Of a DNA stretch of 64,000 nucleotides, positions 2,327-57,380 are shown piece by piece. The notes under the pieces are model-generated. The model was not told the origin of the DNA. It did not search any database and was given only the letters and a program-made list of their open reading frames with translations. Within the stretch, counting starts at the first letter, position 1. Each line of letters opens with the position of its first letter. Origin of the DNA: Octopus vulgaris (Eukaryota); assembly GCA_951406725.2 (NCBI GenBank), contig OX597836.1, positions 20,026,001 to 20,090,000 of the forward strand. Reading direction: 5' to 3'. Both the position numbers and the translations under genes were made by a program.

Positions 2327-2670
2327 AGGTGGCAAACTGGCAGAATCCACTTGACTTTTCATCCTTTCAAGGTTGATAAATTAAGTATCAGTGAAACACT
2401 GGAGACAATGTAATTGCCTAATCCCCTCATGCAAAATTTGAGGCCTTGTGCCTTTAGTAGAAAGGATTATTATTATTATTGCTATTGCACAGAATCGTTA
2501 GCATGCCAAGTAAAAATACTTAGTGACATTTCACCTCCCTTTATGCTCTGGGGTCGACTTTGCCTTTCATTCTTTCGGACTCGATAAAATAAGTACCAGT
2601 TGAATACTGGGAGTTAATGTAATCAACTTACCCCTCCCCCAAATTGCTGGCCTTGTGCCAAATTTGAAAC
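2327..2670 (+). mobile_element. Two degenerate SINE family B copies (Deu/Nin-like core) with different tails
   Basis: GGCAGAATC head remnants and TTTCATCCTTTC..GATAAA..AAGTACCAGT core; tails GGCCTTGTGCCTTTAGTAGAAAGG and GGCCTTGTGCCAAATTTGAAAC. Confidence 0.7.
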
Positions 2671-2692
2671 CACCACCACCACCACCACCACC

Positions 2693-2726
<34 letters not shown>

Positions 2727-2862
2727 TCATTATTATCATTATTATTATTATCATTATCATCATCATCATCATCATCATTATCATTATTATTATTATTATC
2801 ATTATTATTATCATCATTATCATCATCATTATTATTATTATTATTATAATTATTATTATTAT
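2670..2862. repeat. (CAC)n/(CAT)n/(TAT)n trinucleotide tract
   Basis: Directly visible. Confidence 0.95.
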
Positions 2863-3654
2863 TAAGAGAGCAGCGCATGCCATCAAAGTGATACTGGGGT
2901 ACAAATATACGAAGCCCAGTATACCCATCATGACTACTTGTGTCATAAGGTACACCAGGTACATGCATCACAACCATATGGGCGTGATATGATTGCCTCA
3001 TATCAAGACAAACCGTGCATAACCTTGCAAGTGAGGTCCAGTTAAAATTTTTTTCAGGTCAAGTAGCCCATCTTGCTCAAAAGGTCCCTGAATAAGGGTT
3101 GTTTAAGGATGATGAATGAAACACCCATGTTTCCAGAGGTGAATTATTCAAATCCAAAAGAATTCCTCTCAGCACTTGGTTATGATGTTCCCCAACTACT
3201 CCTGCTCATGAGGCACATATCATCAGCCACTAAGGGACATACTCAACTGGTTATGGTCAAACCACTGACAAGCAAATCTGTGGTATTGAGCAGAATATTT
3301 ACTGTAGCCGTCTTTTATATCAAGAAAAAACATGTACATGATAGCACATTATTGTTGTTACTATTATTAAAAAGAATGGTAAATGGTAGAATCTGTTGAG
3401 CAATGGAAAATTTTGTTTATTTTCTTTTACAACTTGAGTTCAAATTCTATCAAGTTGAACATTGTTTTTCACTATTAAGGGGTTGTTAAAATAATAAACC
3501 AGTTATTGTACTGGGGTCAATTAAGTCATCTGTACTTCTCAGGTCAGAATTTTGGTCATGCATCACTGTGAGAAGTCATTATTGTTGATGCTATCATGGG
3601 GGAGGGGGCAAATACAGGGAGAAATGGCAAAATATAAAAGGAAAAGAACCTCAC

Positions 3655-13322: not shown

Positions 13323-13700
13323 AGGAGAGGCTGTGTGGTAAGTAGCTTGTTTACCAACCACATGGTTCCGGGTTCAGTCCCACTGCGTGGAACCTTGGGC
13401 AAGTGTCTTCTACTATAGCCTCAGGCCGACCAAAGCCTTGTGAGTGGATTTGGTAGACGGAAACTGAAAGAAGCCCGTCGTATATATGTATATGTATATA
13501 TATATGCGTGTGTGTGTTTGTGTGTCTGTCCCCCTAGCATTGCTTGACAACTGATGCTGGTGTGTTTATGTCCCCGTTACTTAGCGGTTCGGCAAAACGA
13601 GACCGAAAGAATAAGTCCCAGGGTCGATTTGCTTGACTAAAGGCGGTGCTCCAGCATGGCCGCAGTCAAATGCCTGAAACAAGTAAAAGAGTAAAAGAGT
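13323..13700 (+). mobile_element. SINE family A, near full length
   Basis: A/B boxes, CORE-like motif, GTAAAAGA tail repeats. Confidence 0.9.
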
Positions 13701-14492: not shown

Positions 14493-14888
14493 GGTGCAGG
14501 AGTGGCTGTGTGGTAAGTAGCTTGCTAACCAACCACATGGTTCCGGGTTCAGTCCCACTGCGTGGCATCTTGGGCAAGTCTCTTCTGCTATAGCCCCGGG
14601 CCGACCAATGCCTTGTTAGTGGATTTGGTAGACGGAAATTGAAAGAAGCCTGTCGTATATATGTGTGTGTGTGTGTGTGTGTGTATGTGTGTATGTAGCA
14701 TTGCTTGACAACCGATGCTGGTGTGTTTACGTCCCCGTCACTTAGCGGTTTGGCAAAAGAGACCGATAGAATAAGTACTGGGCTTACAAAGAATAAGTCC
14801 TGGGGTCGATTTGCTCGACTAAAGGCAGTGCTTCAGCATGGCCGCAGTCAAATGACTGAAACAAGTAAAAGAGTAAAGAGTAAGAGTA
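14493..14888 (+). mobile_element. SINE family A, full length (GCTAACC head subtype)
   Basis: GGTGCAGGAGTGGCTGTGTGGTAAGTAGCTTGCTAACC head; a second tail copy follows at 14920-15016. Confidence 0.9.
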
Positions 14889-20189: not shown

Positions 20190-22184
20190 TCAGCTAGCTT
20201 TAATGCCCTTCCAATTTTCTAATATTGAATTCATGAAGAGAAACCCAGAAGTTTCCAACTGTTTTGGACTGTGTTCCCCTTTAAACAACTGGCTCAGTGG
20301 TCGTCTGGTACAGACTGGGTAGACGGTCATATTAGACACAGATGGACTCAGGATGTTGGGAAGCTTACTCCATTCAAATACATTAACATCAAACAAATAG
20401 ACATGAAAAATATGAGGACTCAAATGGACTGATGCATACAATATTGACCCACAAACTTTAACTGAGCTACGAGGGTAGTTGTTTAGGTTTTGTAAAGGCA
20501 GGCAACTAATTTGGGGTTTGGGTATAGTGATTCCATCGTCCGTCCATCTCTTACTTTCTAAATCATAACAAATGCTTTTTGCGAAATGACTTTCTTCCAC
20601 TGAATTCCATTCGTTTATTCCACCAAGATCATCCAAAAATTGCAGTTTTCGGTTAAAATAAATGGCTTGATTCAACTGGATATCACTCAAGTTAGCAAAC
20701 ATATTGGAGAGTAATGTATATTCCCCTTTACAAGTATCAATCTGGTATAAGTAAGAAGCAGAAAGACTAGCAGGACACTCTCCTCTATACTCACTGGAAT
20801 CTGTTACTGGGTTTGTATGGACAAAGTTCTGAGTTATCTGAGCAACAACAAACACGATGTTGTTCTCTACTGGAATTGCATGCAGTTTCACAGAAAAATC
20901 TTCCTTCAAGACCACTGTTTTTTTGAAGCTAGATCCACTAAGGTTCTGTACAATATCCAATACTAGTGACCAAGATTTAATAATGTCGTAGATATACAAT
21001 GAAAATACCAAACCCCTGTTCGAACGATCCCAACAATTCATAATTACGTGAAGTCGCCCTGATTGGCAAAAATAGTGGGTTGCTTCTTTGGAAGGATTTA
21101 CTGCACGTCCTTGTCTCATTACCGTGCGCAAAACTGATGGCATAACTTCAGCAACTTTGGTTGATAAATTTATCAAATTGATGTTATAAATATCTTTTCC
21201 AAGGGACACCAAATAGTTGCTGTCGATGATACCAAGTGGTGTCCCATTATGGTTGAGTAAATCGAATGTCCATTTCTTGGTTTCAGCACAATATATATTT
21301 ATCCCATGAGAAAAATTCTCCTGCACCAAAATACCATAAAAAAGAGGTTGAAGATCAGATTTATCAACTGGTGAAGTTACTTGCTCAATAGGTTCCACAG
21401 AACGTCTCCAACTGATTTTCCCTTTGAAATCTGGAAGATATAAGCTAAGCTGTGAAGTTGGCACATTGTAAGCATTTGTCAAACTATGGACAGAATCCAA
21501 TATTACTTCTAAGGCCTGGTTGTTGAGATATTTTAACAAAAGTGACTTGGCTATGTCTTTACGAGTATCAAAGTCCCCTGCACTCATCCAGGAAACAATC
21601 AAATAACTTACATCTTCATGCCTAGCAGTTTTGATCAATTCTTCGTTATTTAATACTGTGGTTATACAGTTCGAGGTGAAGTCACCCAAATCAGTTTCGT
21701 CAATTATCTCACGACAGAAAATGACTGACAGCAAGGAACTACATATGATCTCGAGTTCTTCCATTTCATATAAATAGGATAGCTTCCATGCCCAGAGGAT
21801 GTTCTGTGGTTGTAGTTGCTCAAGAAGAAACTGTGCGCAGTGATGCTTCAAACTGTGAAGCATAAATAGATGGGCTGCACCGAGAACTTGTTCTAGGGTC
21901 TTTCGACGCAGCATTACTTTTCCCGTGTACATATAATCAATGACTAATTTAAGAACGGCAACGTCCTCAAAGGAGCTGGAGAAATCAATAGTTTTCGTGG
22001 AGCTCTCACGGAAACCCGACTGAAGCATCACTTCAAAATATTCACTCGCTGAACTGAGAACAATCCCATGGACAGCTATAATGTCATCGTTGACTTTCAG
22101 AACAACATCCGTATAGAATCCGGTTTCGTACAAGTTATGTAATTTGTCGTTTCTTTCTTTCAGGCTTGTTTCGTCGCAGTACAT
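20190..22184 (-). CDS. BTB/POZ-BACK protein with divergent Kelch-like beta-propeller (KBTBD/KLHL-like, probable Cul3 adaptor), 664 aa in one exon
   Basis: Uninterrupted non-repetitive ORF; BTB motifs TDVVLKV, HGIVLSSASEYFEVML, FRES, VIDYMYTG; BACK-like CAQFLLEQL..NILWAW; Kelch-like Y/F-D..W ends (YDIIKSW, YDLESKRW, FDVNVFEW). Confidence 0.93.
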   Translation of the reverse strand: MYCDETSLKERNDKLHNLYETGFYTDVVLKVNDDIIAVHGIVLSSASEYFEVMLQSGFRESSTKTIDFSSSFEDVAVLKLVIDYMYTGKVMLRRKTLEQVLGAAHLFMLHSLKHHCAQFLLEQLQPQNILWAWKLSYLYEMEELEIICSSLLSVIFCREIIDETDLGDFTSNCITTVLNNEELIKTARHEDVSYLIVSWMSAGDFDTRKDIAKSLLLKYLNNQALEVILDSVHSLTNAYNVPTSQLSLYLPDFKGKISWRRSVEPIEQVTSPVDKSDLQPLFYGILVQENFSHGINIYCAETKKWTFDLLNHNGTPLGIIDSNYLVSLGKDIYNINLINLSTKVAEVMPSVLRTVMRQGRAVNPSKEATHYFCQSGRLHVIMNCWDRSNRGLVFSLYIYDIIKSWSLVLDIVQNLSGSSFKKTVVLKEDFSVKLHAIPVENNIVFVVAQITQNFVHTNPVTDSSEYRGECPASLSASYLYQIDTCKGEYTLLSNMFANLSDIQLNQAIYFNRKLQFLDDLGGINEWNSVEESHFAKSICYDLESKRWTDDGITIPKPQISCLPLQNLNNYPRSSVKVCGSILYASVHLSPHIFHVYLFDVNVFEWSKLPNILSPSVSNMTVYPVCTRRPLSQLFKGEHSPKQLETSGFLFMNSILENWKGIKAS

Positions 22185-22228
22185 AATACTGAGGTCGACA
22201 GACAGCGACTTGCAAATGCAATTTTGAC

Positions 22229-22250
22229 CTGGAGAGAAAAGAATTTGAAA
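22229..22250 (-). other. Splice acceptor upstream of the BTB ORF
   Basis: Minus strand TTTCAAATTCTTTTCTCTCCAG|GTC; exon begins at 22228, 44 nt before the ATG, with no in-frame stop in between. Confidence 0.75.
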
Positions 22251-23075
22251 GCAGGAATAAAAGCGATTTTAAATAAAGCGAAAAATTACAGTAAATAAAA
22301 AGTAATTCTTTCATACAGAAATATCAAATCATATTTGGCAGAATCATTAGCATGCCAGGCAAAACACTTAGCAGTATTTCATCTGCCACTACACACTGTG
22401 AAACACTGGGGTTGGCTAGTCCCTACCCCCAAAATTTCAGGCCTTGTGCCTATATAGAAACGATTATCGTCATCATCATTATTGTTATTCACCAAAGCTG
22501 GTAGCATTTCTAAAGCTCTGTAAGTTAGCGCCTTGTTTTGCTTATTAGAGGTTCAATATAGTTAGTTTTATTGTATCTTATTTCCAAGTTAACAAGTATC
22601 ATATTTGTCGTATCAAGTGTTTGGTCTATTTGCCCTACGGGGCAGAAAGCTTGGAAAGAAAACTTCTTTCGAGACATAAAAAAAAACTTCAACATGGCAT
22701 TGACTTCATCACTGAGCAAAGAAGAGAGGAAGGTAGGACGGAAGAGATGAAGGTAGGAGGAGTCTTTGAAAGTGAAATTGTATTTGGCCATAACTTTTTC
22801 CTCAAATTTTCCAAAAAATCGTATCAGTGATATCAGTAAAAACAACAACACAGCAGTGATGGCAGCAGCAGGAACAATGACATATCATATAACGAAGCTT
22901 GATAAATAACCAGCAACAGCAAATCGTGCAATGCAAACACCACTACTGCCACACAAATCAGAAGCAGTGAAAATGATAGTTCAAACAGTATCAACAGCTT
23001 TAAAAATATACACAATGGTAAAAATCACCAATGTGTTTGATGTGATGCCATGAGAAAGCAAGGGCGAATGTTTAA

Positions 23076-25094: not shown

Positions 25095-25920
25095 TTACTT
25101 GTCTGTGGCCATGCTGGAACATCACCTTAAGGGGTTTTAGTCAAACAAATTGACCCCAGGATTGATTCTTTATAAGCCTAGCGCTTATTCTATTGGTCTC
25201 TTTTGGTGAGCCATTAAGTTACAGAGACAAACACATCAACATTGGTTGTCAAACGATGGTGAGGGAGGGACAAAAAGACACAAACACACAAATAAAATAT
25301 ATATATACATAGGCGCAGGAGTGGCTGTGTGGTAAGTAGCTTGCTTACCAACCACATGATCCCGGGTTCAGTTCCACTGCATGGCACCTTGGGCAAATGT
25401 CTTCTACTATAGCCTCGGGCTGACCAATGCCTTGTGAGTGGATTTAGTAGACGGAAACTGGAAGAAGCCCGTCGTATATATGTATATATGTGTATGTGTG
25501 TGTGTGTATATATATATATGAATATGTGTGTTTGTATATGTTTGTCTGTTTGTCCCCCCAGCATCGCTTGACAACTGGTGCTGGTGTGTTTACGTCCCCG
25601 TAACTTAACGGTTCGGCAAAAGAGACCGATACAATAAGTACTAGGCTTACAAAGAATAAGCTCTGGGGTCGATTTGCTCAACTATAAAGGTGGTGCTCCA
25701 GCATGGCCGCAATCAAATGACTGAAACAAGTAAAAAGAAGACACACACACACACACACAATGGGCTTCTTTCAGTTTCCATCTACCAAATTCACTCACAA
25801 GGATTTGGTCAGCCCAAGGCTATAGTAGATGACACTTGCCCAAGGTGCCATGCAGCGGGGCTGAACCCAGAACCATGTGGTTGGGAAGCAGTCACGTCTA
25901 GCTTCTTACTACACAGCCAG
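25095..25920 (-). mobile_element. Older SINE family A copy interrupted by a younger, opposite-strand family A copy
   Basis: Minus-strand tail 25095-25290 and head 25740-25920 flank a plus-strand full copy. Confidence 0.8.
25311..25737 (+). mobile_element. SINE family A, full length, nested
   Basis: AGGCGCAGGAGTGGCTGTGTGG head through AATGACTGAAACAAGTAAAA tail. Confidence 0.9.
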
Positions 25921-30961: not shown

Positions 30962-31709
30962 TTTAAGAACATTAAGCCAGATACTTTGCACTATTCATCC
31001 CGGTTAATATTCATTATTGCTGGAAAACGTCACATTTTCTCTAAAGACAGGTTTATCTCATTCACTCCCGCTTTATTGCTATACAAATAGGTCGCACATA
31101 TAATACACTTCAACCGACAAGAGTTTGTCACCAATCTTAAGTCAGAAATATCAGGGGGTGTTTTTTCTAGGTCGTCTGCAAAAGTAAACGAAAATAGCCT
31201 TGATGTGGAAGATTTATTACTAAAAGAAATTCAACTCAAAATATGAAGATTTCGATATCACAAAATACTAAGACGGCAAGCTGGCAGAAACGTTAGCTGA
31301 CCAAGCAAAATGCTTCGCGGCATTTCGACCGTGTTCATGTTCTGGGTTCAGATGCTACCGTGGTCGACTATTCCTTTCATCTTTTCGGGGTCGATAAATT
31401 AAGTACCAGTTGAGCCCTGGTGGTCGATGTAATCGACTTGCCCCCTCCCTGAAATTGCTAGCCTTGTGCCAAAATATGAAACGAGTATTGCAAAATATTT
31501 TTATGGCAATAGATGGTTAGTTGGTCAGACAAACGATTAACGGCATTTCTTACGACTCTTTATATTCTGAGTTAAATTTCCGTCGGGTTCGACTATGTCT
31601 TTCGCCCTTTCGTGATCGGTAAAATAAGCACAAATACTGGGGGTCGATGTAATCGACTCGGTCCCTTTCCCTCGTACGTAATTGCTGTCTTTGAGTCAAA
31701 ATTTGAAAT

Positions 31710-32085
31710 TGCTAAGCAACCACATGGTTCCGGGTTCAGTCCCACTGCGTGGCATCTTGGGCAAGTGTCTTCTGCTATAGCCTCGGGCCGACCAATGCCT
31801 TGTGAGTGGATTTGGTAGACGGAAACTGAAAGAAGCCTGTCGTATATATGTATATATATATATGTATGTGTGTGTGTGTGTTTGTCTCCCTACCATTGCT
31901 TGACAACCGATGCTGGTGTGTTTACGTCCCCGTAACTTAGCGGTTCGGCAAAAGAGACCGATAGAATAAGTACTGGGCTTACAAAAGAATAAGTCTCGGG
32001 GTCGATTTGCTCGACTAAAGGCGGTGCTCCAGCATGGCCGCAGTCAAATGACTGAAACAAGTAAAAGAGTAAAAGAGTAAAGAGT
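31710..32085 (+). mobile_element. SINE family A, slightly 5'-truncated
   Basis: B box, CORE-like motif, GTAAAAGA tail repeats. Confidence 0.9.
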
Positions 32086-33534: not shown

Positions 33535-34561
33535 AAGGCAGGCAGTAGCGTAAACGTGACGTCGGTGTGATTTAAATAGGTTAGCGGGAGCGATGACATA
33601 GAAAAATGGCGTCGTAGCACATACCAAACAACTGTTAACTACTTTCTCTTATATTACACGGAATATTTCATTAGTTCTAATATATGTAATTATATTTTAC
33701 ATTCATTAGTTTCATGTTTCAGTAACAATGCCATTATGTATGAACCTTACAACAAGTGATATAAGTGTGACGTGATGGAGCTACATGGGATCATCCAGTG
33801 TCAAGCGGTTATGACGTCAGAGTTTGACTTGGTTTTTCGGATGTCAGCGGCCACCAATACATCACAGAAGATTGAACAGACAGTTCAAAAACGCGGGTTG
33901 TTGATCAAATAAAATGTCTCCAGAAAGTTTTTCCAAAGCCATGCGATTAACAAAAAAAAAGAAAAGATTCGACTTTCTTCACACAAGGGAACTGAAGAGT
34001 TTAAAAAATTGTTGAAAATTAGCTAATTTTGAAAAATGTGCTCCGAGAAAGCAATCGTTCCTCTTTTAACTACACCAGTTAAAGTAGGAATTCCAAACCA
34101 TTTTGAGCTTTTAGACGTTGGTTAGTGCGTTTTTTACAAATTAATTACCACAAAGGAAAAAAATTATCGTCTTGACCAGAAATTTTGAAATTTGAGCTAA
34201 ATTTGGCAAAGCTTGCTTCCCAACAACATGGTTGTGGGTTCAGTCCCACTGCGTGACACTTTGGGCAAGTATCTTCTACTATAGCCTCGGGCCGACTAGA
34301 GCTTTGTAAGTGGAAAGCCTGTCGTATATGTATGTGTCCACCACCATTTGACAACCGAACGTAGTGGTTCGGCAAGACACCGCTAGAATAAGTACCAGGC
34401 TTTAAAAAAATAAAAGTACTAGGGTCGATTCGACTAAAAATTCTTCGAAGCTATGCCCCAGCATGGCCGCATGAAAGATATTTGTAGAAAATTTCATTAA
34501 AAAATATCTATTAAATATCTACCTTTCTTAAAGTTGGGAGGAAACAAAGTTGGGACATACG

Positions 34562-44050: not shown

Positions 44051-44354
44051 TTTAAAGATTGAGTCATTTCAAAGTGAAACATAGCAAACTTGATGGCTAG
44101 ACAGCATGACACAACAGATAAACAATCCATTCCATTAGTGAAGTGTTCATCAATGAAAGGTAGTTTACTGGTGTACTAAGTTTACTTAGAAATAGATTTC
44201 ATATTTTACTCTGCTTGTTGTTCCCTTAGCAAAGTATATTTTTCAGGAAATAGTTTTAGGTTCAGTTCAATGTCCTTTTTTTTTCAATCCTAACTATTGA
44301 GAGTTTGGTTTTTTTAATTGTTTTGTTGATTTGATTCTGTTACTCATTAGTATA

Positions 44355-44751
44355 CTCTCTCTTTTACTCTTTTACTTGTTTCAGTCATTTGACTGCGGCC
44401 ATGCTGGAGCACATGCCTTTAATCGAGCAACTCGACCCCGGGACTTATTCTTTTTTGTAAATCCCAGTACTTATTCTATCAGTCTCTTTTGCCAAACCGC
44501 TAAGTAACAGGGACATAAACACACCAGCATCGGTTGTCAAGCAATGCTAGGGGGACAAACACAGACACACAAACACACACACGCATATATATATATATAT
44601 ACATATATACGACGGGCTTCTTTTCAGTTTCCGTCTACCAAATCCACTCACAAGGCTTTGGTCGGCCCGAGGCTATAGTAGAAGACACTTGCCCAAGGTG
44701 CCACGCAGTGGGACTGAACCCGGAACCACGTGGTTGGTAAACAAGCTACTT
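44355..44751 (-). mobile_element. Host SINE family A (B box, body, tail), split from its 5' end by a 4.3-kb insertion
   Basis: Sequence stops at ACAAGCTACTT and resumes at 49085-49115 AGCTACTTACCACACAGCCACTCCTACGCCT. Confidence 0.92.
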
Positions 44752-46787
44752 TATTTTATATAATTTGCCACTAGGGCAGCACACAGAGTAGCTGCGGGCT
44801 GGACAAGGACATTAATGGATGATGGTGGTGGTGGATGACGATGGTGATGGGAGAAGTCAGAAAGCGCCCGCCGACTTTTGCTTCTCTAAAACAATGTTCT
44901 TTTTTTTCAATAGTTTTACAGAGTTCAAAAATTTCAAAAACTTCAAACAATTTCAAAAAATTACAAAATGTTCACATTACATGTTTTAGAGGAGGCAATG
45001 AACCTCCTCTTCCATATGTTACAGGGATGTTACATTGCCTAAGTGACCCGGCCGACCATTGCTCTTGCCTCATTGAGGCAATACTCGCTGGTCAGGCCGG
45101 AGTCCAGTGGTACAGTCTGGAAAGAGTCCGCCGGGCAGGAACTCACGATCCTGTGTAGATCAGCCCTTCCCACGACCCCCGCACTCGGGGCCTTCCACAC
45201 AAGACCGGATTACCTCCCAATGTCCTCTCTTTCGCACTTTTCTTACGGCGTCTTCCACCTTTTTTCCCTTGAAAAAGAGGAGCACAAAATCTTCTACAAA
45301 TAGTCCCTCAGGCAGCACACCCGCCTGAGAGGATCCGGGATATTCGGGAACCGCCGTCTGCGTGTAGCAATCCGCCGGCGGGGCTCCGTTTCTCTTCTTT
45401 TTTCTTTTATTTTGGCCCTGGGCCACGGGAGGCTGAGGTTCCGGAGCTGTGCGCACCAGGTTCTCCCCTCCCGGAGCTTTCGGGTCCTTTGGTGGGTCGC
45501 CATTGCTCCCCACCTTTCTCTTTCTTTTAGAGGAGGATTTTTCCCCCTCCTCACTTTGTTTCTCTCCCTCCACTGGTGGGGCAGGGAGAGGCTCTGATAT
45601 CAGCCGCTCCAGGATCCTACTCTGGTCCCTGGAGCAGTTTTTCTTAATATGGCCGGTCTCCGAGCACAGGTGACACTTGGGGGGGCGTCCCTCTAGCATC
45701 ACCGGATACTTGGAACCGGCCATCTTTAGGAAGTCCGGCAAAACCAGACTCTTGGCCGACTGGGTCCACAGAGTTAAAGTAGCTTTTCCTCCTTCCCAGT
45801 TAGCCGCAGGCTGCATTCTTACGTTCAGGATCTTGGCGCTACCACTACTCAGACCCCGGCGGATGGAATCTTCCACCCACTCGGGCTCAAAGCCGGGCGG
45901 CAGGCCGCAGACCCATAAACGTATCAATTTTTCCCCCTTATAGCTTGGGAGAAACAGAATCTCGTCGCCCTCAATGGGCTTACTTGCGAAATCGCAAGCT
46001 GCTTTAGGAGAGTCAAACAGCAACCAAATCGTTGCGTATTTGGCTCCCCGTTGAATGTGTTTAACGGCTGGCATATAATCTGCCAGCTCGTTCATAATTG
46101 TGTCTTTCGGAAAGACCATTATGGTGTCGAGAGACTTCGAATATGTCCTCAGCACCACTGTCTTTTCCTCAAGTTCGTTCAAATATTTTTTGGGAGGTGT
46201 TAATTCCCACACTGTAAAATTCCTTGCCATAACTTAAGAAAAACAGTTCAAAATGTTACAAAATAAATTAGACACAGAAAGGAGAATGAAAAAAGCAACA
46301 GAAGGGAAGAAATAAAATTAAAATGGCAGTTCAAAGAAAGTTTTTTTTTACAAATGAATGATAGGCAGAGGAAGAGAGTTCAAATTCAGACAAAGGAATT
46401 TTTTCACTTTTTCGGCCAAAAATTGTACTCCAGGCCAAGTATATGGTTGGTACAACACCTTGGTAAATGATCCTTGGTAAATCCGTAGATAACACAACGA
46501 TAATTTCAAAAATAATTTTTGTAGACGGACTACGCCGCCTCAAAAACACAATTTTCTTCACACCCGACAACAGGCAGAAAAACTATATCCGGAGCAAAAT
46601 GGAGCCTTATTATCTGCTAAAAATATTTAATGCTAAAATACATTAATGCAAGTAATAAAGCTTCACTTCGCTCGCAAAAATACAAAATTCCTACCTGCAG
46701 TCGAGTCGAAAGTTCAACAATTCACGTTGAAACAACGTGGCATCCGGAGCAGCAAAATAACACGTCTAACTCAGACGAAGGTTAGCG
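44752..46787 (-). mobile_element. ORF1-only non-autonomous L1/Tx1-like retrotransposon, copy 1
   Basis: Bounded by AGCTACTT repeats; about 550-nt 5' UTR, single zinc-knuckle ORF, short 3' UTR, A-rich tail; no RT or endonuclease. Confidence 0.85.
45039..46230 (-). CDS. L1/Tx1-type ORF1 (gag-like) protein with CCHC zinc knuckle; apparent 1-nt frameshift near the C-terminus
   Basis: CHLCSETGHIKKNC = CX2CX4HX4C, preceded by an RRM-like region; track ORF stops at 45160, but removing one C from the run at 45176-45180 extends it to the TAG at 45039-45041 and restores similarity to copy 2. Confidence 0.85.
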
Positions 46788-46795
46788 AGCTACTT

Positions 46796-49084
46796 TATTT
46801 TATTTAATTTGCCACAAGGGCAGTACACAGATAGCAGCTACGGGCTGGACATAGACATTAATGAATGATGGTGATGAAGTGAAGATGATGATGGGAGAAG
46901 ACGAAAGCGCCCGCCGACCCCGCTTCTCTTAAGACAATGTTCAATGAATACATTTAGTAAAATGTTCAAAAATGTTCAGAATGTTCAAATTACATTTTTT
47001 CAGAGGAGGTAATAAACCTCCTCTTCAACATGTTTAAAAATGTTCAAAATGTTCAAAAAGTGTTTAACAATTCTCCCCGTCAGGTCCCCGAAGCAAATTG
47101 TCTTGCCGCCTGCAGACAACTCTGCGACGACAAGTCGAGGCCTGCAAAGAGAAAAGTAAAATCTTTCCTCTGAAAGGTCTCTGCGACCCTTGTCAAAATA
47201 TCTTCCGTTACTACCTCCGCAGCTACCCGCGGAGGCCATAACGGACTCCTTGAGCCGACCGTGTCCTTGCGTTCTCGGTCACCCAAGCCATTTAAAAACT
47301 TTTCCACCTTCCCTCCCTTGTGGTAAAGGAGGAGAAACAACTCCTCTTCACAGGAAGGGACCTCACACTGATCCGTCAGTAGCACACTTCCCACTGACGG
47401 AGCCCTGTCCGCGGGTGGCACACATCCCACCCGCGGCTCCGTCGGCGACACAGAAACGTCAGACGTCCGACCTCTCCTTTTTCTCCTCCTTCTTTTGGGG
47501 GAGACTGCTAACCCAGGGGACTCCGTCACCAGACACGGGGGAATGCTATTCCTCTCCGCCCCCTGAGCGTTCTTTGGTGGGCAACCGTTGTTGCTTGCCA
47601 GCCTCTTTCTTTTCGTGGAGGCAACCTCCTCCACGACTTCCACCGTCTCCCCCTCCAATGAGGGGACGGCGGGCACCTTTTCCTTTTCATGTTCCGGGGC
47701 GGCACCACGGCCCCCGGGACACTTCTTCTTAATATGTCCGGGCTCCGAGCACCGGTGACACTTGGGGGCGCGTCCCTCTAGCATCACCGGATACTTGGAC
47801 CCGGCCATCTTCAGGAAGTCCGGCAAAACCAGACTCTTGGCCGACTGGGTCCACAGAGTCAAAGTAGCCTTTCCTCCTTCCCAGTTAGCCGCAGGCTGCA
47901 TTTTCACATTCAGGATCTTGGCGCTACCACCGCTCAGACCCCGGCGGATGGAATCTTCCACCCACTCGGGCTCAAAGCCGGGCGGCAGGCCACAGACCCA
48001 TAAACGTAACAATTTTTCCCCCTTGTAACTGGGGAGAAACAGAATCTCATCGCCCTCAATGGGCTGGCTTGCAAATTTGCAAGCTGCTTCAGCGGAGTCA
48101 AATAGCAACCATACCGTTGCGTATTTGACTCCCCGTTGAATATGTTTAACGGCTGGCATATAGTCTGCCAGCTCGTTCACAATGGTGTCTCTTGGAAAAA
48201 CCATTATGGTGTCGAGTGACTTTGAATATGTCCTCAACACCACGGTCTTTTCCTCGAGTTCGTGCAAATATTTTTTGGGAGGTGTTAATTCCCACACAGT
48301 GAAATTCTTTGCCTTTGCCATAACGTAAAATACAACAGTTCAAAATGATAAACTAAAATTAGCCACGGAAAGGAGAATGAAAAAATGCAACAGAAGGGAA
48401 GAAATAAAATTAAAAATGGCAGTTCAAAAAAGTTTTTACAAATAAATAATAGACAGAGAAAGAGAGTTCAATTCAGACAAAGGAATTCAGTTCTTTTTTT
48501 TTTCCACTTCTTCGGCCAAATATTGTAATCCAGGCCAAATGCACTGTTGGTAAAACCCTTGGTAAATAATCCTTGGTAATCCGTGGACAACACAACGACA
48601 ATTTCAACAATAATTTTTTCAGACGGACTATGCCGCTTCAAAATTACAATTTCTTTTCATTCGACACAGGCAGAAAAATTATATCCGGAGCAAAGTGGAG
48701 CCTTATTATTTGCTAAAAAATATTAAATGCTAAAAAACATTCATGCAAGTAATAAAACTTCACTAAACTCGCAAAAACACAAAACGCCTACCCGTAGTCG
48801 ATTCGAACGTTCAACAGTTCACGTTGAAACAACGCGACATCAATACAATTTTCTTTCCACTCGACACAGGCAGAAAAATTATATCTGGAGCAAAGTGGAG
48901 CCCTATTATCTGCTAAAAAATATTAAATGCTAAAAAAACATTAATGCAAGTAATAAAACTTCACTTCGCTTGCAAAAATACAAAATTCCTACCTTTAGTC
49001 GAGTCGAAAGTTCAACAATTCACGTTGGAACAACGTTCATCTGGAGCAGCAAAATAACACGTCCGAACAGTTCAGAGGTTAGCG
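46796..49084 (-). mobile_element. ORF1-only non-autonomous L1/Tx1-like retrotransposon, copy 2
   Basis: Same architecture as copy 1; bounded by AGCTACTT at 46788-46795 and 49085-49092; duplicated unit of about 200 bp in the 5' UTR. Confidence 0.85.
47080..48321 (-). CDS. L1/Tx1-type ORF1 (gag-like) protein with CCHC zinc knuckle, 413 aa, intact
   Basis: CHRCSEPGHIKKKC; first 200 aa differ from copy 1 at about 17 positions; basic NLS-like tracts KRKR and KRRRRKRR. Confidence 0.9.
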   Translation of the reverse strand: MAKAKNFTVWELTPPKKYLHELEEKTVVLRTYSKSLDTIMVFPRDTIVNELADYMPAVKHIQRGVKYATVWLLFDSAEAACKFASQPIEGDEILFLPSYKGEKLLRLWVCGLPPGFEPEWVEDSIRRGLSGGSAKILNVKMQPAANWEGGKATLTLWTQSAKSLVLPDFLKMAGSKYPVMLEGRAPKCHRCSEPGHIKKKCPGGRGAAPEHEKEKVPAVPSLEGETVEVVEEVASTKRKRLASNNGCPPKNAQGAERNSIPPCLVTESPGLAVSPKRRRRKRRGRTSDVSVSPTEPRVGCVPPADRAPSVGSVLLTDQCEVPSCEEELFLLLYHKGGKVEKFLNGLGDRERKDTVGSRSPLWPPRVAAEVVTEDILTRVAETFQRKDFTFLFAGLDLSSQSCLQAARQFASGT

Positions 49085-49115
49085 AGCTACTTACCACACA
49101 GCCACTCCTACGCCT
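49085..49115 (-). mobile_element. 5' end (A box) of the host SINE family A
   Basis: Minus strand AGGCGTAGGAGTGGCTGTGTGGTAAGTAGCT. Confidence 0.9.
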
Positions 49116-49241
49116 ATCTGTCTATCCAACAGTATCTGTCTATCTCACAGAATTTAGTGCTTGTAGGAATAGGCATGTTTATATGGGGCATGCTTTCAAC
49201 AGATCCTGATTAACTCTTCATACTGAAATTTCATTCCCTCC

Positions 49242-50270
49242 TTAACATTGGGGTTTCAAGGATTTCCATTTCAATTTCCTTCCGTTTGGCCTTCCTGAAA
49301 TTCGAGTTGATGTGGAGTGAGTCATGATTGAGGTTATTTGTATATATGTTGCCCTCATTGACGATTGTATAATGCTGTGATCGGAAATAGCTGTGACAAT
49401 GACCTGATCATTGTGAATGAAGTCTGTATTGGTGGTAAAGACTAGGTCAAGTATGTTATTTCCCCTAGTTGGACAGGTAATTATTTGACGCTTGAAGAAA
49501 TCTTTAGTGGTATCGAGAAGAGCATTCATACCTCTCCTGTTCAGTTGTTTAATTCCAGGTTGGATGTAACCTTTAGCCCAGCTGAGACAAGTAAAATTGA
49601 AGTCCTCTGCTCAAAGCACATTGATCTATGAACTGGGCTCATTTGGGTTTTGACTTATTAGCAACAAAGTATCTTTGAAGTGATCTCCACGGTTAGCAGC
49701 ATCAGGAAGACAGAAGGTAATGGCTATGAAGGGCAGTGAGCTGGCAGAATCGTTAGCACACCGGGCAAAATGCTTAGCGGTATTTCTGCCATTAGGTTCT
49801 GAGTTCAAATTCTGCTGAGGTCAACTTTGGCTTTCATCCTTTCGGGGTTGATTAAATAAGTACCAGTTACGTACTGGGGGCGATATAATCAAATTAATCC
49901 GTTTGTCTGTCCTTGTTTGTCCTCTCTGTGTTTAGCCCCTTGTGGGTAGTAAAGAGATAGGTAATGGCTATGAGCAAATTGAGGTCAATCACATGCATTA
50001 TAAGTGTTGGAGTGGGAGAGGACATTTGTTGCCAGGTCTTCTTGGATGAAGGTTGCTATTTCTCCTTATTTCCATATTGTGTAGTCAGTTCTGAGTAGTG
50101 TATAACCTGATATATGTACTTTTGCATCCAATATGTCTGGGATCAGTTATGTTTCACTTAGTGCTACACATATTGTCTTTTCTCAATGTACAAAGTCTCT
50201 AAGATATGATATTTTTGTTTGGTTTGTGCTGTGAAGTTTGAAAGACCTTTTACAGTTGACATTATTATTA
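49242..50270 (-). pseudogene. Decayed CR1/L2-group LINE, APE endonuclease region
   Basis: QIITCPTRGNNILDLVFTT..SDHSII motif; DFNF at about 49600; VALSET at about 50160; stops and frameshifts. Confidence 0.8.
49730..49958 (+). mobile_element. SINE family B, full length, 15-bp TSD
   Basis: TSD AGGTAATGGCTATGA at 49715-49729 and 49959-49973. Confidence 0.93.
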
Positions 50271-56950: not shown

Positions 56951-57380
56951 TAGGCGCAAGAGTGGCTGTGTGGTAAGTAGCTTGTTTACCAACCACATGG
57001 TTCCGAGTTCAGTCCCACTGTGTGGCACCTTGGGCAAGTGTCTTCTACTATAGCCTCGGGCCGACCAAAGCCTTGTGAGTGGATTTGGTAGACGGAAACT
57101 GAAAGAAGCCCGTCGTATATATGTATATATATATATATATATATGCGTGTGTGTGTTTGTGTGTCTGTGTTTGTCCCCTAGCATTGCTTGACAACCGATG
57201 CTGGTGTGTTTATGTCCCCGTTACTTAGCGGTTCGGCAAAAAGAGACCAATAGAATAAGTACTGGGCTTACAAAAGAATAAGTCCTGGAGTCGAGTTGCT
57301 CGATTAAAGGCAGTGCTCCAGCATGGCCGCAGTCAAATGACTGAAACAAGTAAAAGAGTAAAGAGTAAAGAGTAAAAGAG
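56951..57380 (+). mobile_element. SINE family A, full length (GTTTACC head subtype)
   Basis: Complete head, body and (GTAAAGA)n tail. Confidence 0.93.

Follow-up and report, generated by a model that had tools for sequence, protein, structure and literature searches.

Two ORF1-only retroelements stacked at one nucleotide of an octopus SINE, and a 5′ 16-mer that differs from its host

How does a retroelement come to begin with a copy of its target that does not match the target into which it is inserted? This question is raised by a locus in a 64,000-nt stretch of Octopus vulgaris DNA (contig OX597836.1, positions 20,026,001 to 20,090,000; hereafter the window), in which 2 elements, designated A and B, are stacked head-to-tail at one nucleotide of one young SINE. 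The 5′ end joining of non-LTR retrotransposons is still only partly understood, and the rDNA target is nearly invariant, so that a carried tag is hard to distinguish from an ordinary duplication in rDNA elements. A SINE target with subtypes provides a natural barcode for each insertion, and comparison of the 5′ and 3′ 16-mers can be used to probe homology-assisted joining.

Layout of the locus and subtypes of the host SINE

Read on the minus strand, the locus has the order head-X-A-X-B-Y-body, in which the head and the body are the separated parts of the host SINE and X and Y are 16-mers (Table 1). X reads AAGTAGCTCGCTAACC and occurs as an exact match at the 5′ junctions of both elements; Y reads AAGTAGCTTGTTTACC and occurs at the 3′ junction of B and in 2 empty SINE copies. 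The coordinates assigned to these 16-mers in the first-pass annotation are right. X and Y differ at 3 of 16 bases (positions 9, 11, and 13). A search of the window for the 16-mer with up to 3 mismatches returned 7 matches versus 0.27 expected, a number reached by none of 100 shuffles.

The middle X doubles as the 3′ copy of A. Thus, A has a perfect 16-bp duplication, which is silent on a carried tag, and the mismatch is that of B (X versus Y), the two 5′ junctions not being independent. The earlier statement that both elements begin with a 16-mer foreign to the host holds for B and fails for A, of which the flanks (X/X) match in the pattern of an ordinary duplication; the evidence for a carried tag consists of a single informative junction pair. 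A 792-nt contig from the public sequencing run X4 covers positions 46715–47506 (A-X-B) with 1 other letter and 2 gaps. The middle junction is therefore present in data other than the assembly, which confirm at least 2 of the 3 diagnostic bases of the middle X. That run X4 consists of RNA is a guess, and no evidential weight attaches to its gap over 48839–48985.

The SINE subtypes GCTAA and GTTTA are real and have linked body markers: at +38, +57, +79, and +121, the copies at 14515 and 31702 (GCTAA) agree with each other and differ from those at 13340 and 56975 (GTTTA), the definition being based on 2 copies per type, with the copy at 25334 mixed at +79. The presence of both subtypes in the window, as had been claimed, is thus borne out. 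The GCTAA copy at 14515 reads TTGCTAACC and is a single base off X, at a CpG position. Among the 16 SINE copies of the window (the longer BLAST matches, not every fragment), X is exact in none and Y is exact in 2. The copies at 31702–31717 and 34206–34221 are headless and start within the 16-mer, near the insertion site of A and B, which chance 5′ truncation may explain. The head is presumably of tRNA origin; ARAGORN found no tRNA, so this origin depends on box motifs.

Table 1. Coordinates of the features of the locus and of the reference SINE copies in the window
Feature	Positions	Strand	Remark
Host SINE 5′ head, 22 nt, side that we take to be A-box-like, split from the body by the insertions	49093..49114	minus	head also precedes intact copies 13324, 14499, 25318, 56959
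16-mer X, 5′ junction of element A	49077..49092	minus	sequence match
Element A (2281 nt), comprising a 35-nt leader, a pair of ~200-nt 5′ monomers, a single ORF, 3′ UTR, A-rich end	46796..49076	minus	
15-nt near-palindrome, first bases of A, 7 pairs including one G-U	49062..49076	minus	background 109 in 128000 positions
Two tandem 5′ monomers of A, putative internal promoter units	48641..49041	minus	177/198 identical
413-aa ORF of A, resembling type I ORF1p, CCHC knuckle included	47080..48321	minus	
16-mer X, common to A (3′ duplication) and B (5′ junction)	46780..46795	minus	sequence match; bridged by a run X4 contig
Element B, 2028 nt: 35-nt leader, one 5′ monomer, one ORF, 3′ UTR, A-rich end	44752..46779	minus	
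15-nt near-palindrome, start of B, 7 pairs including one G-U	46763..46777	minus	5-bp core homologous to that of A
Single 5′ monomer of B	46544..46744	minus	182/198 identical to the first monomer of A
ORF of B, 356 aa, two predicted RRM folds and CCHC knuckle	45160..46230	minus	
3′ terminal tail of B, ~124 nt, conserved with A	44752..44875	minus	joints at 44875 and 44876 in public contigs
16-mer Y, 3′ junction of element B, continuous with host SINE body	44736..44751	minus	sequence match
Host SINE body and tail, GTTTA subtype, 4/4 markers	44354..44735	minus	1 private change in 112 nt
Empty SINE reference site, GCTAA subtype, one base from X	14515..14530	plus	sequence match
Second GCTAA-subtype SINE, overlooked in the first-pass annotation, 5′-truncated within the 16-mer	31702..31717	plus	marker comparison
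Empty SINE reference site, Y type	13340..13355	plus	sequence match
Empty SINE reference site, Y type	56975..56990	plus	sequence match
Decayed fragment of a LINE endonuclease, located upstream of the SINE	49341..49658	minus	Pfam Exo_endo_phos_2 E 6e-4; tblastn to L001 ORF2 E 8e-12

Elements A and B and their family

A and B are 82% identical at the nucleotide level, and each has a single ORF, followed by 3′ UTRs of 284 and 408 nt, respectively. The ORF listing and Pfam revealed no reverse transcriptase (RT) or endonuclease domain in either element; with the two ORFs, Pfam returned only zf-CCHC, just below the cut-off. In the AlphaFold model (mean pLDDT 72.6; residues 11–220 about 80–95 per block), two RRM-like domains precede the knuckle, and structure comparison gave tandem-RRM matches with E about 3e-5 and low TM-scores. 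The model thus points to the type I ORF1p architecture (RRM and CCHC) for the ORF of A and B. Type I ORF1 occurs beyond the L1 clade too. Excerpts of PMC5203782 link the architecture to Tx1/L1 in non-mammalian animals. Between A and B, 197 codons contain 31 synonymous and 17 non-synonymous codon differences, so that the ORF is under (purifying) selection. The ORF of B ends before that of A, and the homologous coding tail sits in the 3′ UTR of B (45030–45160, minus strand).

The ten best relatives looked up include 6 named ones, from Octopus sinensis, O. bimaculoides, O. vulgaris, and Argonauta. None of the 23 relatives scanned contains an RT, and no autonomous partner was found in the form of longer homologs of 1092–3115 aa, which is weak evidence. 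Since the elements carry ORF1 only and no RT-bearing relative was found, we take A and B to be half-L1-like passengers; they would form an octopod family of half-L1/Tx1-like, ORF1-only, non-autonomous elements, the clade of which is not fixable in elements that have no RT. O. vulgaris has 80 L1-Tx1 consensus families, of which 13 were recently active (excerpts of PMC13282606).

The tandem 5′ monomers of about 200 nt resemble the promoter monomers of rodent L1, and each has a small conserved hairpin near its start. The near-palindromes at the starts of A and B differ in sequence, and their 5-bp core is kept via 2 wobble-type changes; they may represent a hairpin conserved in the RNA or the relic of an early snap-back event. 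The snap-back origin (excerpts of PMC11371274) is disfavoured because the core is homologous between A and B. A TTTT lies 23 nt into both elements. The conserved 3′ tail is probably a recognition tail for a partner ORF2. The last ~120 nt (44752–44875) appear module-like: one contig has them alone at the SINE site (joint 44875–49087), and another lacks them (joint 44756–44876).

Twenty of 24 listed public runs have part of the window, under four organism codes, and the contigs of 4 runs were aligned. Each DNA run gave 2503–3525 aligned contigs, SINE contigs at the ends included, with a body depth far above that of single-contig joints; summed contig depth is not a copy number, but thousands of contigs per DNA run indicate that the A/B family is multicopy. 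Contigs and window sequence together reveal a dispersed multicopy family with an X-A-X duplication and an A-rich 3′ end. Pattern scans for the element or its junction gave no matches in metagenome, prokaryote-genome, and viral contigs.

Aligned-contig evidence on targeting amounts to one or two contigs per item, among the matches listed. Among these, loose ends occur in run X4 at 44760 and at 44770, and their letters resemble diverged element 3′ ends; as only 9 and 19 element bases precede these positions, the aligned parts of these contigs should include the SINE side. In run X1, the joint 44875–49087 places a 5′-truncated copy in this SINE site, preceded on its 5′ side by 6 target bases, and in runs X1 and X8, the joint 44756–49081 has 12 target bases and unread letters between. 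The truncated copies seem to show these shorter target copies, and the full 16-mer may thus belong to full-length copies. Site sharing comprises 2 of 2 window copies, at least 2 X4 contigs with diverged 3′ ends, and at least 1–2 truncated-copy joints, counts that have no denominator; a family is termed target-specific in the excerpts of PMC4494074 if >20% of its flanks lie in one target. The first-pass suggestion of repeated targeting is upheld by the two insertions at one nucleotide, together with the single contigs that have diverged 3′ ends and a truncated copy there. Mosaic contigs that join a part matching B to a part matching A (joints 44904–46934, 45709–47801, 46034–48140, and 46267–48392, among the matches listed) point to mosaic copies or third subfamilies, and since there are several of them, recombination among copies may be common.

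Origin of the mismatched 16-mer

At the divergence of the host, the probability of at least 3 changes in 16 nt is 0.0002–0.006. Since the host body carries a single private change over 112 nt and shows the Y type at all 4 markers, X did not come from it by decay; an ordinary duplication with later mutation, which the first-pass annotation had set against its own reading, does not account for this locus. Either B brought X along, or a later event replaced one side of the locus. We lean toward the former, that is to say, toward full-length RNAs that would carry a target-derived 5′ tag annealing at the new site; the weight of this interpretation relative to replacement is a matter of judgement, not computation. 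Three observations are consistent with a tag: (i) X is absent from the 16 window SINEs, as expected of a fixed element-borne variant; (ii) the spacing between X and the conserved leader is 13 nt in both subfamilies, although the 13 nt themselves differ by indels between A and B; and (iii) X pairs with element nt 19–33 at -14.4 and -15.2 kcal/mol versus -13.2 kcal/mol for Y, a weak and post hoc comparison in which 108 and 48 of 2000 shuffled 16-mers were equally good and 20-nt windows paired with equal strength at rates of 6.5% in A and 10% in B. The pairing hints that X folds back on leader nt 19–33 around the 15-nt hairpin, slightly better than Y. The shorter target copies that truncated copies seem to show, and the run X4 contig across A-X-B, count on the side of a tag as well. 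The earlier proposal that the 5′ 16-mer was carried from a donor SINE is thus partly sustained, insofar as X is not decayed host sequence (P 0.0002–0.006), and it is limited by being one data point, with X exact in none of the 16 window SINE copies.

From the observed anatomy, same-nucleotide stacking, and subtype discordance, we infer the following steps. A target-specific partner ORF2 would nick the SINE head just before AAGTAG and copy the A and B RNAs by target-primed reverse transcription from the 3′ tail. B would have inserted first, into a young Y-type SINE, from an RNA that began slightly upstream of the element proper and carried X, which had once been the target duplication at a donor site of an ancestor. 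The end of the B cDNA may have annealed to the host target, with which X shares its first 8 nt and 13 of 16 nt overall, and this annealing would have left X at the 5′ junction of B and the host Y at the 3′ junction. A would then have entered the regenerated head-X site on the 5′ side of B, giving X-A-X, an arrangement that fits an ordinary duplication or a carried tag. Because each new full-length copy would regain the tag, the tag would perpetuate itself.

The tag-bearing RNA would most likely come from the 5′ monomers of the element itself or from read-through from an upstream tandem copy. An R2-type ribozyme and the SINE Pol III promoter are less likely sources of this RNA. Rfam at E up to 10 gave 12 matches, with no ribozyme among them and none at the gathering score; an HDV-like descriptor gave no matches, and a hammerhead core was found in neither 5′ region. 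TTTT terminates Pol III. With TTTT at nt 23 and the B-box-like motif displaced 4.3 kb by the insertions, Pol III read-in from the SINE is unlikely, and the same TTTT together with the negative ribozyme searches makes R2-style RNA production by host co-transcription unlikely. The first-pass comparison with the co-transcribed target of R2-type elements is therefore apt for the outcome at the junction and is unlikely to extend to the mechanism.

Replacement, to which we assign a real but lesser probability, would have begun with ordinary duplications, after which gene conversion or ectopic recombination exchanged one side of the locus: either the host was once X-type (X-A-X-B-X) and its 3′ copy and body were overwritten by the commoner Y, or head-X-A-X-B was imported. 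The perfect pair formed by the flanks of A is consistent with this, as are the ~380 nt of abundant SINE homology that adjoin the 3′ 16-mer and the mosaic joints 44904–46934, 46034–48140, and 45709–47801 in the public runs. It is also consistent with the collinearity of the flanks not being significant. The continuation of the LINE frame and an 18-nt tandem unit across the insert, seen by eye, speaks against a crossover between loci but is no argument against conversion. Also against replacement, the conversion tract must come within 8 nt of the junction and span all 4 markers to +121, the original host variant is one found in 0 of 16 copies, and the 5′ side offers just 22 nt of head homology.

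The remaining explanations fare worse. A-X-B may have moved in one piece, as a read-through dimer copied from a tandem that sat in an X-type donor SINE, with the inner X inherited, and a run X4 contig does cross the A-X-B junction; but that run is RNA by guess only, the contig may derive from this same locus, tandem R1 (excerpts of PMC2718515) and SINEU-3 (excerpts of PMC4494074) were interpreted as sequential insertions, and the outer X would be left unexplained, still needing a carried tag or conversion, all of which makes the dimer improbable. A one-off template jump, in which the RT, having copied B, continued on RNA or DNA of an X-type SINE for another 16 nt (plus the head) before joining, has precedents in the "extra template" 5′ junctions of R2 (excerpts of PMC11371274) and in the SINEU-2 extensions from a different subfamily (excerpts of PMC4494074); it would have to stop exactly at base 16 and give the same 13-nt spacing as in A, and we regard it as highly improbable. 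Slightest of all is the chance that three point mutations in an ordinary duplication, or an assembly chimera, produced the mismatch: position 9 is a CpG site, but two of the three changes, improbable as they are (P 0.0002–0.006), match another subtype, and the middle junction is bridged by the public-run contig.

A wider reading, less likely than not, is that octopods harbour a radiation of SINE-targeting L1/Tx1-type elements, including ORF1-only passengers, in which full-length RNAs begin with a fixed, self-perpetuating 16-mer tag that folds on the leader and primes 5′ joining that is precise, with no ribozyme involved. Such a radiation would parallel the R2/rDNA system, with SINEs as a very large and scattered target. 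The partner endonuclease would add another nickase with sequence specificity. Were the mismatch a one-off conversion, what is left would be a new but ordinary example of the target-specific Tx1/half-L1 kind.

Comparison with known systems and flanking sequence

The locus behaves as a Tx1-type, target-specific insertion would, probably with a 5′ target tag of the R1/R2 sort, and is not an R2; each ingredient is already known from the R1, R2, and Tx1-Mar/SINEU systems. As described in excerpts of PMC5753468, HAL1 (half-L1) resembles A and B in that it keeps ORF1 intact as its one ORF, lacks ORF2, and has complete UTRs at both ends, an A-rich end, and an ORF under purifying selection. A and B differ from HAL1 in that (i) their ORF1 is predicted to be of type I (RRM and CCHC), not the mammalian Transposase_22; (ii) they are from octopods; and (iii) they are apparently site-specific. 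Target-specific elements of the Tx1 clade (excerpts of PMC4494074) include Tx1L in Tx1D, Keno in U2, and Tx1-Mar and SINEU-3 in Mariner-N4_AMi. They likewise occupy one site in another repeat and form tandem copies sandwiching a duplication, for which the expected length in SINEU-3 is 16 nt. By contrast, the target here is the head of a SINE and the passengers, of a clade that is not fixable without an RT, encode ORF1. For SINEU-2B_Crp, the same excerpts describe a 5′ extension resembling the target, and derive it from a master copy within the target repeat. That extension is 42 nt long and weakly similar and belongs to a non-coding element, whereas an exact-length pseudo-duplication in a coding element, at one locus, is found here.

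In the earwig R2, every 5′ junction has a 22-bp copy of the downstream target with three substitutions, propagated via RNA, and the R2 elements of earwig, sow bug, and horseshoe crab resemble B in having a 5′ target copy that is substituted relative to the host target (excerpts of PMC3774820). R2 is co-transcribed with rRNA and excised by an HDV-like ribozyme; here no ribozyme was found by the searches above, the target is not rDNA, and there is no R2 protein, A and B having neither the single ORF with RT and restriction-like endonuclease nor the 28S target of the R2 clade. According to excerpts of PMC2718515, full-length R1 RNAs of the melanogaster type carry 28S bases, truncated copies have plain duplications, and tandem R1 elements arise via insertion into the 5′ duplication. 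Drosophila R1 is thus similar in its tandem copies, separated by a duplication and formed at the 5′ copy, and differs in being autonomous, in its rDNA target, and in a tag that comes from upstream of the nick. No SINE-targeting ORF1-only octopus element was found in the literature searched (excerpts of PMC11203168 and PMC4824008 contain nothing of the kind); Repbase, Dfam, and subscription papers lay outside this search, and the family may be catalogued there.

The reading frame of a decayed LINE ORF2 seems, by eye, to continue across the whole insert, and the collinearity tests were not significant: in a frameshift-aware alignment of the flanks to one LINE ORF2 (L001), nulls were as good in 4 of 100 cases upstream and 19 of 100 downstream, and in an anchored alignment of the downstream flank to the same ORF2, 52 of 400 nulls were as good. 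The 18-nt imperfect tandem unit at 49116–49145 appears to resume after the SINE tail at 44340–44353 (minus strand). L001 (1339–4398) and L002 are contigs filed as bacterial MAGs (Bacteroidota and Gammaproteobacteria) that contain a eukaryote-type LINE ORF2, which is probably host contamination. Elsewhere in the window, positions 20190–22268 (minus strand) contain a frame that stays open for 692 codons and has a BTB domain at its N-terminal end (Pfam E 1.6e-21) and a kelch-like layout, possibly an intronless gene or a retrogene.
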